DNA from: an uncultured Eubacteriales bacterium | Lineage (GTDB): Bacteria > Bacillota > Clostridia > Lachnospirales > Lachnospiraceae | Direction: 5' to 3' | Length of the DNA: 64,000 bases | NCBI GenBank assembly: GCA_949289065.1 | Contig: CASEMA010000007.1 | Coordinates: 14,967-78,966, forward strand | Part shown: positions 3,686 through 8,682 of the stretch, piece after piece | Layout: every line of letters starts with the position of its first letter | How positions within the stretch are numbered: position 1 is the stretch's first letter | Notes under the pieces: generated by a model | Told to the model about the DNA's origin: nothing | The model's database searches: none | Seen by the model: only the letters and a program-made list of their open reading frames with translations | Position numbers and translations under genes: made by a program

Positions 3686-3700
3686 AATGGAGGAATGGAT

Positions 3701-5080
3701 ATGGCAGAGACAACAACTACCGATGCAATTGAGACAAAAAAAGTTACAGACCTTGAAGAAAAAACGACACCGGAAGATGACGACCTTTTTATGGCCGGAG
3801 ACGCCGGAGAATCAAAATTAAAAAAAATAAAGTGGTCTAATCTGTTAGAAGCTGTTAAAGCAAAGATTGCAGAATGGGACTTTGAAACGTTGTCAACGGA
3901 GGATAAGACTGTCCCGGGGGCGTTGAACGAACTAAACAGTAACATAGGCGCATTAGGATCGTTGAAAACATCTATAAAGACGAGCATCGTTGGGGCTATC
4001 AATGCCCTCGCAACTATCGTCGACGGCAAGGCCAAGACTAATCACGCCTCAACAGCAAATACATATGGACTTGGCACAACGTCTAATTACGGGCATGTTA
4101 AGACGATTAACGGCCTTGGACAAACGGACCATGCCGACGGGACAGCCTTGTCAGCCTATCAGGGCTATGTGTTGGACAATGCAAAAGCTGCTACGGGAGC
4201 GGGAGAATTTGCGTCCTTAGCCGCTTTTATCAATTATGTGGGCCAAAGACCAAAACAAACATATATCGGCAAGTGGAAAGATACCGGCGGATGGATGCCA
4301 AGAGGATCAGCATGGTATCACGGGTTTTGCGTATTGCAAAATCCACCAGGGAGTTCTTCAGCTATTGATGGCATTGTAGTGTGTCAGTGTAATACAGACT
4401 TTTATTTTGGACGCATAAACGGCACAACGACACCAACTGCAACATGGCATCAGCTTGTAATGCCAAACAATAACGGCGATTTCGGGGAATTACCTTTTAT
4501 AAATGCCGGCATGATATCCGGAACCACGCCTCAATTATTACAATTATGGGCATCGGGTGAGGCTGACTTTGTATTGTGCCTCGGTGTGCGCAATGGCGCT
4601 TGGGGATTGAGTCCATTCAAGAACGGCTCGTTGCAGCTTGGCGCAGCAAATTATAAATGGGGCCAAGTGTATTCTAACGTAGCATCTATCAGTACATCTG
4701 ACAGAAACGAAAAACACGATATTCGCGATCTACCTGCGAATATAAAAGATTTTGTAATGGGATTAAGTCCTGTAGCCTACAAACTAAACGACGGAACTTC
4801 CGGGCGCTTACATTACGGATTAATTGCCCAAGATGTGGAATTATTAATGGAAAGCTGCGGAATGACTTCGGTGGATTTTGCTGGCTTTGTTAAGTCACCA
4901 AAAACCGAACCAGTATTCGATGAAGAGGGCAAAATCATCGAAGAAAAAAACGTTGAAGGTGAATATGTTTACGGCCTTCGTTACGATGAATTCATCGCGC
5001 CGCTGATTAAAATGGTTCAGATCCAGCAGAAGGAAATCGAGGAATTAAAAACACTGATAGAAAAGTCTACTGGAATGTAG
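3701..5080 (+). CDS. Tail fibre/spike with C-terminal intramolecular chaperone (peptidase S74-like)
   Basis: TSDRNEKHDI...LSPVAY...HYGLIAQDVE...LRYDEFIAPLIK.VQ.QQKEIEELK; ALNELNSN neck motif; GGAGG 7 nt before ATG 3701. Confidence 0.85.
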   Translation: MAETTTTDAIETKKVTDLEEKTTPEDDDLFMAGDAGESKLKKIKWSNLLEAVKAKIAEWDFETLSTEDKTVPGALNELNSNIGALGSLKTSIKTSIVGAINALATIVDGKAKTNHASTANTYGLGTTSNYGHVKTINGLGQTDHADGTALSAYQGYVLDNAKAATGAGEFASLAAFINYVGQRPKQTYIGKWKDTGGWMPRGSAWYHGFCVLQNPPGSSSAIDGIVVCQCNTDFYFGRINGTTTPTATWHQLVMPNNNGDFGELPFINAGMISGTTPQLLQLWASGEADFVLCLGVRNGAWGLSPFKNGSLQLGAANYKWGQVYSNVASISTSDRNEKHDIRDLPANIKDFVMGLSPVAYKLNDGTSGRLHYGLIAQDVELLMESCGMTSVDFAGFVKSPKTEPVFDEEGKIIEEKNVEGEYVYGLRYDEFIAPLIKMVQIQQKEIEELKTLIEKSTGM

Positions 5081-5092
5081 TCATAAGGAGAA

Positions 5093-5551
5093 ATGAGGGA
5101 AAAAATGAAAGTAATTGATACTTACAACATGATTGTTGGAGCAGCAGTGACCGTCATGATAGCCATATTTGGGGCCTACTGGTACATATTTGCAGCGTTT
5201 TTGATTTTTAATGTATTTGATTGGCTGACCGGATGGTATAAGTCCAGGAAACTCAAAAAAGAAAGCAGCGCTGTCGGTTTACAGGGAATTTTGAAGAAAC
5301 TGGGATACTGGGTTATAATTGCTGTGGCGTTTTTGGTTGCCAATGTATTTGTCCACATGGGAACAGATATTTTACACGTGGATTTAAGCTTTTTGATGAT
5401 GGTCGGATGGTTTACACTGGCCTGCCTGATGGTCAATGAGGCCCGGAGTATTTTAGAGAATCTGGTGGAGTGTGGATATGATGTGCCAAATGTCCTGATT
5501 AAGGGGTTGGCGGTAACTGATAAATTGATTAATAGCGATGAGGAGGAATAG
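5093..5551 (+). CDS. Phage holin (holin family 4-like)
   Basis: Several TM segments, DWLTG...SS.VG..GILKKL...NEARSILENL..CG..VP..L.K.L; directly before the endolysin. Confidence 0.88.
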   Translation: MREKMKVIDTYNMIVGAAVTVMIAIFGAYWYIFAAFLIFNVFDWLTGWYKSRKLKKESSAVGLQGILKKLGYWVIIAVAFLVANVFVHMGTDILHVDLSFLMMVGWFTLACLMVNEARSILENLVECGYDVPNVLIKGLAVTDKLINSDEEE

Positions 5552-5554
5552 AAT

Positions 5555-6403
5555 ATGGCAAAGATTTGGTTGAATGCCGGTCACGGCGGGAATGACCCAG
5601 GAGCATGTGCGAATGGAAGAAGCGAAGCAGTCCAGGTGGAAAAACTTACGAGAGCAGTTGGAGCGCTGCTTTCCGGTGCTGGACATACCGTTTGGTATAC
5701 AAGGGATGTATCGCCATATATGGATACCTATGTTCCACATGAAAATAATAAACCAGCGGACATCTTCGTGAGCTTCCACCAAAACGCCGGTGGCGGCCGT
5801 GGGTATGAGTCATTCGTTAGCGGCAATGATAACTGTGCGCTGGCTTGTGCAAAGGCGCTGGCCGAGGATATGGCCAAGATTTGGTCGTTACGTGGCAGCA
5901 CATACGGCGCCGGTGTTAAAAAGCATACGGAAGCCGCTGTCGGCTCACTGTATGTTGTAAGTGGTACAGTGTCGCCGGCGTTTTTAGGCGAGTTTGGTTT
6001 TATTGACAGCGCAGCCGACATGAAGATCTTTGATGAAAAATTTGATCATATTGCTCGATGTTGCGCAAACCGGATTTCGCTGGCCGTGGGCGGAAAGTCC
6101 ATCAGCAACAACACGGAGACAAAGCAGGAAACAACGACAAAGACGGAGGTAAATAAAGTGGATTGGAAATCAAAAGTAACAGATCTGTACATCACGCAGC
6201 TGGGCCGCGAACCGGATCCGGCAGGGCTGGCCTTCTGGGAGAATATCCTCAACAAAGGCACATTGTCTTGGGACGAGGTTGCCAACGGCATTATTGACAG
6301 CGACGAGGGGCGCAGGCGATTCATCCGAGAGCTGTATGTATTTTTGTTGAAACGTGAACCGGATGAAAAAGGAATGAATGACTGGGATGGATGCCATCGT
6401 TAA
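5555..6403 (+). CDS. Endolysin: Zn-dependent N-acetylmuramoyl-L-alanine amidase (Amidase_3) with DUF4214-like C-terminal repeats; last repeat frameshifted (continues 6387-6470)
   Basis: LNAGHGGNDPGA...E, FVSFHQNA, LGEFGFID; repeats LY...LGREPDPAGLAFW and LY..LLKREPDEKGM.DW. Confidence 0.88.
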   Translation: MAKIWLNAGHGGNDPGACANGRSEAVQVEKLTRAVGALLSGAGHTVWYTRDVSPYMDTYVPHENNKPADIFVSFHQNAGGGRGYESFVSGNDNCALACAKALAEDMAKIWSLRGSTYGAGVKKHTEAAVGSLYVVSGTVSPAFLGEFGFIDSAADMKIFDEKFDHIARCCANRISLAVGGKSISNNTETKQETTTKTEVNKVDWKSKVTDLYITQLGREPDPAGLAFWENILNKGTLSWDEVANGIIDSDEGRRRFIRELYVFLLKREPDEKGMNDWDGCHR

Positions 6404-6486
6404 AGGCATGACCCGGGCAGAAATCTATAAGGCGTTTGTTAGTAGTGATGAATTTAAAAGCAAAAAGTAAATCCAACATGTTTTCG

Positions 6487-6521
6487 AAGGCTCTCGGAAT
6501 TCCGGGGGCCTTATTTTTTTT
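6487..6521 (+). terminator. Intrinsic terminator of the late/lysis operon
   Basis: AAGGCTCTCGGA-AT-TCCGGGGGCCTT followed by ATTTTTTTT. Confidence 0.8.
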
Positions 6522-6528
6522 GTTTGCC

Positions 6529-6569
6529 TTGATTTTGGTAACCAATTATAGTATGATATAGGTAACCAA
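6529..6569 (+). promoter_or_regulatory. SigA-type promoter of the AbrB-like gene with two operator copies
   Basis: TTGATT(6529)-17-TATGAT(6552); TTGGTAACCAA at 6535-6545 in the spacer and TAGGTAACCAA at 6559-6569. Confidence 0.8.
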
Positions 6570-6586
6570 TAAAAGGAGGCAGGCAG

Positions 6587-6769
6587 ATGGTAGAGAGAAA
6601 TATAATTATTGCAAAGGCCGGAGGAACAGCCGGAAAGAATTCGGTGAATTATAAGATAAGTTTACCAGCAGAAATGGTAAAAGAGTTGGGGGTAACGCCA
6701 GAAGATAAAAGCGTCACCGTGTCTTTTGAAAATGGTAAAATAATTATAGAGAAGAAGAAAAATGCTTGA
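6587..6769 (+). CDS. AbrB/MazE/SpoVT-family DNA-binding protein (60 aa)
   Basis: YKISLPAEMVKELGV..ED..V.V.FENGKIIIEK swapped-hairpin signature; RBS AGGAGG. Confidence 0.8.
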   Translation: MVERNIIIAKAGGTAGKNSVNYKISLPAEMVKELGVTPEDKSVTVSFENGKIIIEKKKNA

Positions 6770-6794
6770 CATTGGTAACCAATAATGATATAAT
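6766..6794 (+). promoter_or_regulatory. Consensus SigA promoter with the same 11-bp operator
   Basis: TTGACA(6766)-17-TATAAT(6789); TTGGTAACCAA at 6772-6782. Confidence 0.85.
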
Positions 6795-6855
6795 ATAATT
6801 GTCAGAAGGGGAAACCTAATGACAATAACCGGGCAAGCGGAGGAAGGAGAACGAC

Positions 6856-6993
6856 ATGGAGGATATGGAAAAAGGCACCATAAAGGAAATGATTGAATGG
6901 ATGACTGAAAAAGGACATACAGAAGAAGAAATCATGGAATGTATTCGGCGAATGGTCGGAGCAAAGCCGAAAGAAAAAAATAAGGCTGAATAA
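6856..6993 (+). CDS. 45-aa small protein missing from the ORF track (MEDMEKGTIKEMIEWMTEKGHTEEEIMECIRRMVGAKPKEKNKAE)
   Basis: Own consensus promoter, AGGAG RBS 5-6 nt upstream, TAA at 6991-6993. Confidence 0.75.
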   Translation: MEDMEKGTIKEMIEWMTEKGHTEEEIMECIRRMVGAKPKEKNKAE

Positions 6994-7041
6994 ATCAGCC
7001 AGAGCATGACAAGGAGGGCGGGCTTGCCACCGCTCCCCGTC
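6974..7041 (-). ncRNA. Candidate ~68-nt cis-antisense RNA overlapping the 3' end of the 45-aa ORF
   Basis: Minus-strand extended -10 TGTTATAAT (7056-7048), GC-rich 5' hairpin (7041-7008), terminator GGCTGA/TCAGCC (7000-6984) plus UUAUUUUUUU. Confidence 0.5.
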
Positions 7042-7078
7042 AAAAGAATTATAACACAATTAATATATAAATAGGAAG

Positions 7079-7107
7079 AAAAAAAGCTCATACAGGGGGC
7101 TTTTTTT
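7079..7107. terminator. Bidirectional hairpin terminator just inside the prophage end
   Basis: AAAAAAAGC...GCTTTTTTT; on the minus strand it lies 14 nt past the stop of truncated cotJC. Confidence 0.65.
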
Positions 7108-7121
7108 AATGGAAATTATTG

Positions 7122-7232
7122 TCAGTCCTTGCAATACGGGCCTCCGTATTGGCTCATGATTACTTGGGCAATCTGAGCGTTTGGCTGTGTGATATTTACC
7201 GGATACTGCAATCGTTTCTCATAGTTCCACAT
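7122..7232 (-). pseudogene. cotJC: 5' fragment of cotJC (spore-coat Mn-catalase family), interrupted by the prophage
   Basis: MWNYEKRLQYPVNITQPNAQIAQVIMSQYGGP followed by YCKD*; strong RBS GGAGG; third gene after cotJA and cotJB. Intact CotJC continues ...YGG.DGEL. Confidence 0.9.
7132..7151. other. Candidate prophage attachment site (hybrid att; serine-integrase-like)
   Basis: Perfect 8-bp inverted repeat CAATACGG-GCCT-CCGTATTG centred where CotJC similarity ends. Confidence 0.75.
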
Positions 7233-7507
7233 GAGCAGTTACCTCCTTCCCATGGCCATTTTTGCTGAATCCACTCCCAGGAATTACTGGCAGTGTCGTT
7301 GGCGGTATCAATGGTTAAAGGACCGAAACGGCGGGCGTATTCCTTCAGGGCCGCGTTTCGCATTTCGCTGTGTTCGAGAAAATAGGACAGCGCCTCCGGG
7401 TTCTTTGGGTGGGAATCAAGAAACAGGGTAATATCATTTACGGCAAAGCTTACTTTATTAATATAATCCAATAATTGGGATTGGGAAAGTTGACATAGAT
7501 TTCTCAT
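7196..7507 (-). CDS. cotJB: Spore coat protein CotJB
   Basis: LLDYINKVSFAVNDITLFLDSHP...Y..RFGPLT...W.W....WPWE; ATG at 7507 overlaps the cotJA stop (ATGA). Confidence 0.9.
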   Translation of the reverse strand: MRNLCQLSQSQLLDYINKVSFAVNDITLFLDSHPKNPEALSYFLEHSEMRNAALKEYARRFGPLTIDTANDTASNSWEWIQQKWPWEGGNCSCGTMRNDCSIR

Positions 7508-7728
7508 CGCACGCACCTCTTTCCGCAGAATGGTTTATGAAGCTCCGGAAAAATCGTACCGACTTCCAGACTGTGGTTCAGATCAAATGTCGTCTGGAAG
7601 GTTTGCATTGGCACATAGGCCATGGCGATGGGAAAGGTGCAGATATTTTCACAGGCCGGTGCTGCCGGAGCCGGCATTGGCCGGTTGATTGGGTGGCAGC
7701 ACGAAGCCATATTTTGTCGGTAATTCAT
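7504..7728 (-). CDS. cotJA: Spore coat-associated protein CotJA
   Basis: PIAMAYVPMQ...F.L..SLEVGTIFPELHKPF signature. Confidence 0.9.
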   Translation of the reverse strand: MNYRQNMASCCHPINRPMPAPAAPACENICTFPIAMAYVPMQTFQTTFDLNHSLEVGTIFPELHKPFCGKRCVR

Positions 7729-7763
7729 ATAAGCTCCTTTCGGAAAAATTTTTATTTTACTAT

Positions 7764-7793
7764 TAATGTATGAAAACCGAAAAAGAATGTGAG
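7764..7793 (-). promoter_or_regulatory. Mother-cell (SigK/SigE-type) promoter of cotJABC
   Basis: Minus strand AC(7790-7789)-16 nt-CATACATTA(7772-7764); fits SigK AC-N16-CATAnnnTA and the SigE -10 CATACAnT. Confidence 0.7.
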
Positions 7794-7797
7794 AATA

Positions 7798-8682
7798 TTA
7801 AACAATGATTTGAAGCGCGTTGTGCATATTGCGGATATGGATTTCTTTGCTTCCCGGCGCGTATTCACCGTCCAGTGTCCATGGAATTTCAGCTTCAGGA
7901 TAAATATCCAATTCGCTGGCTTGAAAGAAAGTAATGACTTCCGGGTCATAGGATTGGGTGTTAATGGAGACAACGATCTTTGTCAGATCAAAGACGGTCT
8001 TTGGCATTTTGATAAGCATAACTTCAAAAAGACCGTCGTTGAAGTCTACCAGCTCTTTATTCAGACGTATCATACCGCCGATGGAGGTAGAATTGCAGAT
8101 TGCGCCCCAGATGTAATTATCTTCCATAACAGTATCTTCATGGACAAATTTAATGTGGCACGGTTCAATGGCAGAAAGATCCTTCACGCCTTCAAGCAGA
8201 TAGGCCAAATGCCCCAGCCGGTTTTTTAAAGACTGGGGGGTATTATAGGATGTTTCCGTAAAGGCGCCAAAAGATGCCACATAGGAAAAGTAAAGTTGAT
8301 TGAAGGAACCGATATCAATACTGCGCGGAGAGCCGGTCATGATCTGTCGGGCAATTTCCACAGAACTTCCGTTCAGGCCGATGCTTCGGGCAAAGTCATT
8401 GGTGCTTCCGGAGGGAATATAGCCGACACACGGATGGTTTTCAATAGGAACAAGTGTGGAAACCATACCGTTAAAAGTACCGTCGCCGCCGCAGCAAACG
8501 ATCAGGTCATAGGTTTTGTCCTGGCTCAGGGCATCATCAATGGCATTGGATATATATTTTGTCACGTTCAATGTTAATTCATAGCCGGCTTCGCAGAATA
8601 TCTGGCAGACTTCTAAAAGGCTGTCTTTGATCTTTACCGTTCCGGCGCTTGGATTAACAATAAATAGCAGTTTTTTTTTCAT
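7798..8682 (-). CDS. Diacylglycerol/lipid kinase family protein (YegS/DagK-like)
   Basis: IVNPSAG, GGDGT, GSTNDFARS, DGE motifs; ATG 8682 with GGAGG RBS. Confidence 0.9.
   Translation of the reverse strand: MKKKLLFIVNPSAGTVKIKDSLLEVCQIFCEAGYELTLNVTKYISNAIDDALSQDKTYDLIVCCGGDGTFNGMVSTLVPIENHPCVGYIPSGSTNDFARSIGLNGSSVEIARQIMTGSPRSIDIGSFNQLYFSYVASFGAFTETSYNTPQSLKNRLGHLAYLLEGVKDLSAIEPCHIKFVHEDTVMEDNYIWGAICNSTSIGGMIRLNKELVDFNDGLFEVMLIKMPKTVFDLTKIVVSINTQSYDPEVITFFQASELDIYPEAEIPWTLDGEYAPGSKEIHIRNMHNALQIIV

Follow-up and report, generated by a model that had tools for sequence, protein, structure and literature searches.

A modular cassette at the right end of a Lachnospiraceae prophage, with a conserved predicted antisense RNA facing a small-protein gene

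The right end of a prophage occupies the first 7.1 kb (1-7.1 kb) of a 64,000-nucleotide stretch of DNA, here called the window, from an uncultured Eubacteriales bacterium of the family Lachnospiraceae (GenBank assembly GCA_949289065.1, contig CASEMA010000007.1, positions 14,967 to 78,966 of the forward strand). The final 500 bp of this prophage hold a compact cassette, one copy of which spans positions 6524-7056. It contains a gene for a small AbrB-like DNA-binding protein, a strong promoter, a structured leader, an open reading frame (ORF) for a 45-residue protein and, on the opposite strand, the signals of a short antisense RNA that would converge on the end of the ORF. The original prediction, made from the letters of the window alone, had described this arrangement as resembling a type I toxin-antitoxin (TA) locus, and had offered two readings of it, a cytoplasmic type I toxin or a phage regulator gated by a small RNA (sRNA). 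The signals that it named were all recovered, including those of the convergent sRNA over the 3' end of the ORF, and related loci show that they are no product of chance; the regulator reading is close to what the comparison of loci indicates, while the toxin reading finds little support.

The antisense RNA element maps to the minus strand. An extended -10 (TGTTATAAT, 7056..7048) predicts a transcription start at ~7041, and is followed by a GC-rich 5' hairpin (7042..7007, with its core at 7013-7038) and by an intrinsic terminator composed of a hairpin at 7000..6984 (GGCUGAUUUAUUCAGCC) and a U-tract at 6983..6974 (UUAUUUUUUUCUUU). The predicted RNA is ~66 nt long (7041..~6976), close to the ~68 nt first proposed, and would cover the final ~19 nt of the ORF together with its 3' untranslated region, with the stop codon of the ORF (6991-6993) placed within the terminator loop. 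For a 71-nt minus-strand segment the folding energy is -33.6 kcal/mol (z = -5.2), and the hairpin motif is single-copy in the genome to which the window belongs. A permissive Rfam cmscan of positions 6000-7800, which included sar, C4 and the antitoxin RNAs of type I systems, gave no match over the sRNA below E = 7 and none near a gathering score, nor any match for the mRNA leader, and the hairpin sequence did not occur in the papers of the searched library.

The same GC hairpin, with a minus-strand TGnTAnnnT just past it, was present in the first loci found to encode homologues of the small protein. When viral contigs were scanned with the loop region of the hairpin and the matches filtered with a 26-mer, ~40 further loci emerged, and the 26-nt hairpin core (7013-7038) is identical in ~40 loci other than the window. 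A metagenome scan with a 16-nt pattern returned mostly chance matches in GC-rich soil contigs, of which the 26-mer filter left few loci. The antisense element recurs in this way in ~50 distinct phage or prophage loci (IMG/VR contigs), among which the conservation of the antisense signals proposed by the original prediction could be examined. In 46/50 loci the core has an extended -10 (TGnTAnnnT) at a distance of 8-13 nt; on the other strand this is so in 1/50, and in shuffled sequences the mean was 3.3 and the maximum 11. The -10 hexamers are TATAAT (22 loci), TATTCT (9), TATACT (7) and others, with T1, A2 and T6 fixed, which is the signature of sigma-A, and a -35 matching at least four of six positions was found in 35/45 loci.

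The hairpin itself evolves as a structured RNA. In an alignment of 38 distinct sequences, 94% of the cells of the 16-pair hairpin are paired, compared with 53-64% when the pairing is slid, and seven pairs change on both sides, so that the lower stem covaries; none of 500 shuffles reached the observed values. The upper stem-loop, GAGCGGUGGCAAGCCCGCCCUC, never varies, and 22 nt including the loop are constant in 38/38 sequences. Three positions are mostly G·U or U·G pairs that would become A·C on the opposite strand, and the minus-strand fold is the more stable one in 39/41 sequences (mean -22.4 vs -17.4 kcal/mol), indicating that the RNA strand is the minus strand. In 31/49 loci a terminator hairpin is followed by a U tail, and the stop codon of the facing ORF lies within this hairpin in 16/21 loci. 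These terminators are unrelated in sequence (GGCUGA/UCAGCC, AAGCCUA/UAGGCUU, GUCCC/GGGAC and GCCGACU/AGUCGGC, for example). Judged from these sequence comparisons, the element is very probably a genuine sRNA gene.

On the plus strand, the same palindrome is found in front of both genes of the cassette. The promoter region of the AbrB-like gene (6524..6570, plus strand) contains two promoter-like sites (6524-6552 and 6529-6557) and two operator-like copies of the palindrome TTGGTAACCAA, with GGTAACCAAT at 6537 and 6561. The gene (6587..6769, plus strand) encodes a 60-residue protein of the AbrB/MazE DNA-binding fold, presumed to be the repressor of the cassette, which matches PF04014 (SpoVT-AbrB) with an E value of 2.1e-5 and 24.8 bits for a cut-off of 24.7. 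The sigma-A promoter of the small-protein gene comes next (6766..6794, plus strand; TTGACA-17-TG-n-TATAAT); it matches the consensus in 12/12 positions, has a TG preceding the -10, and holds in its spacer (6772-6783) the last of the three copies of GGTAACCAAT. From these three copies, the AbrB-like protein is a candidate repressor that would bind TTGGTAACCAA and, since this palindrome is in both promoters, would repress both.

The same logic applies in other loci with other regulators. The promoter of the small ORF matches the consensus in 11-12/12 positions in most of the 48 loci where it was found, and in most of these its spacer holds the operator of the local regulator, repeated before the upstream gene for a small DNA-binding protein. 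L004, L006, L249 and L250 are examples with other regulators and their own operators. The regulator slot, classed in 43 loci, is occupied by a helix-turn-helix (HTH) protein in 15, a ribbon-helix-helix (RHH) protein in 10, an AbrB-fold protein in 10 including the window, and a second HTH type in four. In one of these loci, that of Clostridium phage phiCs5676-1 (L249, 4517-4552), an (AAAG)n microsatellite of ~9 units lies between the RHH-regulator promoter and the ribosome-binding site, and could represent a length-variable, that is phase-variable, leader.

The small ORF (6856..6993, plus strand) encodes the acidic 45-residue protein MEDMEKGTIKEMIEWMTEKGHTEEEIMECIRRMVGAKPKEKNKAE. Between the window and L008 there are 13 synonymous and no nonsynonymous differences over 37 codons, and the overall ratio of nonsynonymous to synonymous substitution rates is ~0.02-0.1. 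Homologues are 73-98% identical and differ almost solely at synonymous sites, which supports the 45-codon ORF as a genuine gene under purifying selection. A profile search of 1.8 billion representatives returned 54 relatives, of 35-84 residues save for two longer matches with multiple stretches, and the motif common to the family is IEW-EKGH(S/T)-EI--IRR-VGA. The AlphaFold2 model is a helical hairpin (helices 2-18 and 23-34; mean pLDDT 78) with a disordered Lys-rich tail. The grand average of hydropathy (GRAVY) is -1.14, the isoelectric point is 5.2, and the top 15-residue hydropathy window reaches -0.19 without any transmembrane segment, in agreement with the acidic, helical, Lys-tailed and non-hydrophobic product first described. 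No match above threshold was obtained in Pfam (top RecX_HTH1, E 0.011, 16 bits for a cut-off of 26) or in PHROG (top Q-like, E 0.007), no meaningful structural relative of the AlphaFold2 model was returned by Foldseek from the PDB, and a protein-based scan of viral contigs detected no relatives. A metal site of His and Cys residues was considered and discarded, as the Cys is not conserved across the wider family. This small protein is probably a protein-binding modulator, for example in host takeover, anti-defence or exclusion, and is unlikely to be a membrane toxin.

Homologues of the protein are also found in chromosomal settings. In three Lachnospiraceae metagenome-assembled genomes (L002, L003 and L011), ORFs 73-78% identical to that of the window occupy the syntenic position X in matE / X / dtd. 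They have their own strong promoter and share a terminator with dtd, and they lack the antisense promoter, the GC hairpin, the leader motif and the repressor. In L002 (3812-4144) there are two tandem paralogues that belong to different slot families, one of 61 residues and similar to the MEEMTKEEMQRYL family, the other the 47-residue homologue. A distant homologue (P0033) in L306 and L307 is convergent to a PIN-MazE type II pair and has no GC hairpin.

Comparison of the loci indicates that the cassette is modular, its parts being exchanged and homology breaking at the joints. Nearly all loci have a small ORF of 43-54 codons opposite the RNA, and this ORF slot is filled by at least eight families of acidic helical proteins of roughly 45-55 residues, with no BLAST similarity between families. 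Nine of the other slot proteins gave only sub-threshold noise against Pfam and PHROG (SPOB_a, for example). Most slot proteins start with MEEM, MEDM or similar, and many end in a K-rich tail (KNKPTE, KNKAE or KEKAE). These Lys-rich tails are the translated U-tract and terminator arm of the antisense RNA (6970-6993 in the window), and the family-specific part is the central ~35 residues only.

The protein family of the window is found behind an AbrB gene in the window, an RHH gene in L006, an HTH gene in L008 and L005, and the second HTH type in L009, so that regulator and protein are not a matched pair. L097, L034 and L260 have the AbrB gene and promoter in common with the window, but their ORF diverges and the match resumes only at 7012-7053. 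The blocks of homology to the window are 6786-7059 in L008 and 6856-7057 in L009, both ending just past the antisense -10, and the downstream flanks of homologous loci are unrelated. In 26/44 loci the hairpin is followed, at a distance of 39-127 nt and directly beyond the antisense promoter, by the start of a co-directional gene that has a ribosome-binding site. In PHROGs, ten of these downstream genes were nearly all of unknown function, one being HTH- or terminase-small-like. The window itself has only the attachment (att) region 3' of the cassette and no downstream gene, as the prophage ends there. The hairpin motif is present in 11/401 representatives of Lachnospiraceae genera, with no control matches. 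Two phages available as isolates also carry it, Blautia phage Montmirail and Clostridium scindens phage phiCs5676-1; the genes surrounding it in both are all annotated as hypothetical, and a literature search on the two found no RNA or regulatory data.

The mRNA leader contains two further conserved structures. A 5'-terminal hairpin (GUCAGAAGG-GGAAA-CCUAAUGAC, 6801..6823, plus strand) lies at the predicted start of the transcript, as originally proposed; it is kept in other loci, with a compensatory swap from GTCA/TGAC to ACCG/CGGT in L295. It is followed, at 6829..6849 of the plus strand, by a mini-hairpin, CCG[GGCAAG]CGG (6829-6840), and the Shine-Dalgarno sequence GGAGGAAGGAG. The motif G[GA]CAAG was found in 43/48 leaders, where 0.07 per leader would be expected, and is predicted to lie in a loop in 37; it spans three leader architectures, and the stem that displays it varies (CCG/CGG, CCGG/CCGG or GCCG/CGGC). 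GGCAAG also tips the hairpin of the antisense RNA, and its complement falls in the 8-nt loop GCUUGCCA of the plus-strand version of that hairpin, which is kept open by an A·C mismatch. This sharing suggests either that one factor binds both loops or that the two ends of the mRNA make a 5'-3' loop-loop contact, for which the antisense RNA would be a competitor.

Signatures of promoter, hairpin and terminator, an RNA strand, coding constraint on the ORF and exchange of parts are thus established by the alignments, and we favour, with moderate confidence, the explanation that the unit is a portable expression cassette of phages, held down by negative control in two layers. In the first layer, the AbrB-fold protein encoded by the cassette would bind TTGGTAACCAA in its own promoter and in the spacer of the downstream promoter. 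When active, the downstream promoter would produce an mRNA with a stabilising 5' hairpin and the GGCAAG-loop leader hairpin, encoding the soluble 45-residue protein. In the second layer, the convergent extended -10 would give rise to the ~66-nt RNA, the invariant GC hairpin being made first and the terminator over the ORF stop last. This RNA is perfectly complementary to the 3' end of the mRNA and would most likely pair there, starting with a loop-loop contact, and pairing would lead to the mRNA being cleaved or degraded; direct interference from the convergent transcription is also possible. The outcome would be a limit on synthesis of the small protein and, where another gene follows, on read-through into it. 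Strong transcription, an autoregulated repressor, damping by RNA and interchangeable, fast-diverging small proteins would together suit a brief, controlled pulse of expression, as in host takeover, exclusion or anti-defence.

Several points weigh against this explanation. That the antisense RNA is made at all is deduced from its sequence signals, and the -35 of its promoter is weak in the window. Down-regulation of the mRNA is likewise what we infer from the layout, and the RNA may repress or may activate. In 18/49 loci there is no clear second terminator hairpin, so that the 3' end and length of the RNA are uncertain there. L010 and L297 keep the hairpin loop, apparently without a minus-strand promoter, and have the look of a plus-strand terminator, which hints that the plus-strand hairpin is also functional. 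In addition, the invariance of 22 nt exceeds what a simple cis-antisense role needs and, together with GGCAAG in the mRNA leader, points to an extra partner.

The alternative that fares best, although we regard it as doubtful, is that the plus-strand mRNA hairpin is the main actor. Its loop GCUUGCCA would kiss the leader GGCAAG and close the mRNA round the small ORF, affecting mRNA stability, translation or expression of the next gene, and the antisense RNA would compete by means of the same GGCAAG loop. Such a contact would recall the long-range repY-repZ pairing of IncI-alpha and IncB plasmids, or the way hok mRNA folds back. The frequency of the leader motif, mostly in loops and across three architectures, fits this alternative, as does its exact complementarity to a plus-strand loop held open by a mismatch. 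The loop is retained in L302, a variant found via the leader motif, in which the stem is altered, and in the promoter-less L010 and L297. The only loop change, a plus-strand C to U that gives GACAAG in L297 and L301, still permits pairing with the leader as G·U, and leader motif and hairpin are absent together from the chromosomal copies.

Comparison of the leaders with the 3' hairpins nevertheless gave no true covariation, since the motif hardly varies, and the plus-strand loop of L263-type variants closes to 5 nt. In L004 and L305, which have the leader GGC-GAAA-GCC, the hairpins differ too and are not complementary to the leader in the same sense, so that these two loci depart from a single pairing rule; moreover, the G·U asymmetry described above favours the minus-strand fold. 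In L305 (1468-1560) the hairpin is flipped, with the GAGCGGUG...GGCAA arm on the plus strand, while the minus-strand TGTTATAAT is kept, and the leader GGC-GAAA-GCC is complementary to the minus-strand loop UUUUGCC.

Another possibility is the type I toxin-antitoxin locus of the original prediction, in which the 45-residue protein would be a cytoplasmic toxin, the antisense RNA its antitoxin and the prophage would be stabilised. The layout of a small ORF with a convergent sRNA over its 3' end at a prophage site is that of Firmicute loci of this kind, the unusually tight double control is what a potent product would demand, and the possible 5'-3' complementarity inside the mRNA recalls the fold-back of hok. 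Despite these likenesses, such a module is improbable here. The protein is hydrophilic, with no hydrophobic stretch, and so differs from the membrane peptides that characterise type I toxins. The chromosomal homologues, syntenic in three genomes, have a strong promoter without the sRNA, hairpin or repressor, which argues against an intrinsically toxic product that requires an RNA antidote. Also against it are the presence of unrelated families in one slot, the transcriptional repressor within the cassette, an element foreign to type I systems, and the common occurrence of a co-transcribed downstream gene.

An equally improbable alternative is that the sRNA acts in trans, with the invariant stem-loop binding or decoying a host or phage factor that recognises the GGCAAG leader, or pairing with a host RNA, and with its overlap of the ORF 3' end being incidental. 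The constancy of the 22 nt, loop included, beside a freely drifting lower stem, the display of the same hexamer by the mRNA leaders, and the retention of the sRNA beside unrelated proteins would be accounted for in this way, but no candidate partner was found, the host genome has neither a further copy nor an evident target, and the terminator is always positioned over the end of the small ORF, which argues for a cis relationship. Finally, it is very unlikely that the conserved leader and hairpin flanks are mainly recombination boundaries for the swapping of small genes, without a role at the RNA level: homology breaks do coincide with the conserved blocks and parts reassort freely, but strand-specific sigma-A -10 elements, compensatory stem changes, G·U asymmetry and unrelated terminators in a fixed place would not be expected from recombination.

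Elements of the favoured cassette and of the mRNA loop contact can be combined in a more speculative proposal, which we likewise regard as doubtful. The cassette would be an expression socket of gut Clostridia phages, in which interchangeable tiny effectors, possibly anti-defence or host-takeover factors, are controlled by a swappable autorepressor, a 5'-3' kissing contact of the GGCAAG leader loop with the 3' hairpin, and an antisense RNA that mimics the leader loop and so competes for this hairpin. If this were true, the invariant 22-nt stem-loop would let unrelated phages trade cargo while the control circuit is kept.

Three other candidates were rejected. Pairing of the sRNA with the Shine-Dalgarno sequence or start of the small ORF would involve only a generic 5-6-nt CCUCC/GGAGG complementarity, and the stem of the hairpin sequesters it. 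An N-utilisation site like the boxB of lambda and P22 was also considered, for which the predicted loop geometry of the hairpin is unfit. A type II TA pair, with the AbrB, RHH or HTH protein as antitoxin, does not agree with regulators that are bare DNA-binding domains, have separate promoters and reassort freely with the small proteins.

Among known systems, OOP of lambda and the immI region of P22 with its sar RNA come closest, by analogy, to the function proposed for the cassette. The OOP RNA acts on the cII-O mRNA (Krinke & Wulff 1987, 1990, as cited in PMC5869508). Like the RNA predicted here, it is a short phage transcript running counter to an early rightward operon; it reaches over the 3' end of the small gene upstream, has its promoter immediately beside the co-directional gene that follows (as in the 26/44 loci mentioned above) and ends at an intrinsic terminator; the duplex-dependent cleavage of its target mRNA is the action that would be expected for the cassette RNA. 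The resemblance is a functional analogy only, with no homology in sequence or structure. The cassette hosts are Gram-positive Lachnospiraceae, the upstream gene encodes a hypervariable tiny protein rather than cII, and the cassette has a swappable repressor of its own, besides an invariant hairpin and the leader motif that matches it, neither of which has a counterpart in lambda.

The immI region of P22 comprises the Mnt and Arc repressors, ant, and the sar antisense RNA, which covers the ant ribosome-binding site. A small dedicated repressor (RHH in many cassette loci) acting on a very strong promoter is common to both, as is, by prediction for the cassette, an antisense RNA of ~70 nt within the unit that exerts post-transcriptional control on a potent small regulator. 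In contrast to sar, the cassette RNA runs away from the start of the downstream gene and covers the 3' end of the upstream ORF, and the cassette product, of ~45 residues, is unrelated to Ant; no Rfam sar match was found either.

Type I loci with 3' overlap are known from Firmicute prophages and include txpA/RatA, bsrG/SR4, yonT/SR6 and the modules of C. difficile prophages (PMC6563280, PMC7430163). They share with the cassette a tiny ORF, a convergent cis-antisense RNA over the mRNA 3' end and a prophage site, but the cassette product is hydrophilic and without a membrane helix, copies lacking the RNA exist, and the cassette adds a repressor, many unrelated slot proteins and, often, a co-transcribed downstream gene.

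A parallel to the leader motif is offered by replication control in IncI-alpha and IncB plasmids, where a leader ORF (repY or repB) is combined with the Inc antisense RNA and long-range loop pairing (repY-repZ). A small leading ORF precedes a downstream gene in both cases, and the antisense RNA targets a stem-loop that has a complementary loop partner elsewhere in the same mRNA. In the cassette, this partner would lie in the 5' leader and not at the downstream ribosome-binding site, and the small ORF is under strong selection at the protein level and also occurs alone. Anti-CRISPR operons of acr and aca genes combine a strong promoter with a small HTH autorepressor that damps it. They resemble the cassette in their near-consensus promoter, small, fast-evolving, interchangeable phage proteins and own repressor, but in the cassette the regulator gene is placed upstream and has a separate promoter, an antisense RNA is added to the control, and an anti-defence role of the slot proteins is conjectural.

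The cassette is probably an uncatalogued form of phage antisense-RNA control, with an unusually invariant RNA element and a modular architecture. Lachnospiraceae are dominant bacteria of the human gut and their phages are almost wholly unannotated; the 22-nt invariant stem-loop together with the leader motif provides a searchable signature for an uncatalogued sRNA family and for the tiny-protein families, at least eight, that accompany it. The slot proteins, being tightly regulated and placed behind strong promoters, are leading candidates for factors that manipulate the host or counter its defences. The cassette is present in two phage-host pairs in culture, Blautia coccoides (YL58) with Montmirail and C. 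scindens (DSM 5676) with phiCs5676-1, where it is directly testable. More generally, convergent prophage layouts resembling type I TA loci need not encode toxins.

The remainder of the prophage right end contains genes for a tail fibre (3695-5080), a holin (5093-5551, PF05105) and an amidase (5555-6403, PF01520), followed by a plus-strand terminator (6487-6512). On the other side of the prophage junction, on the minus strand, are cotJA (7728..7504) and cotJB (7516..7196), both intact, and cotJC (7232..7122), of which only the first 36 codons are present, matching positions 1-32 of Mn_catalase. As cotJC ends after 36 codons at the junction, the prophage interrupts this spore-coat gene. Between the cassette and the cotJC junction there is a hairpin (7081-7108) with the sequence AAAAAAAGCUC-AUACAGG-GGGCUUUUUUU and A7...U7 flanks, which could belong to the att region or could terminate transcription weakly from both sides at the end of the prophage.

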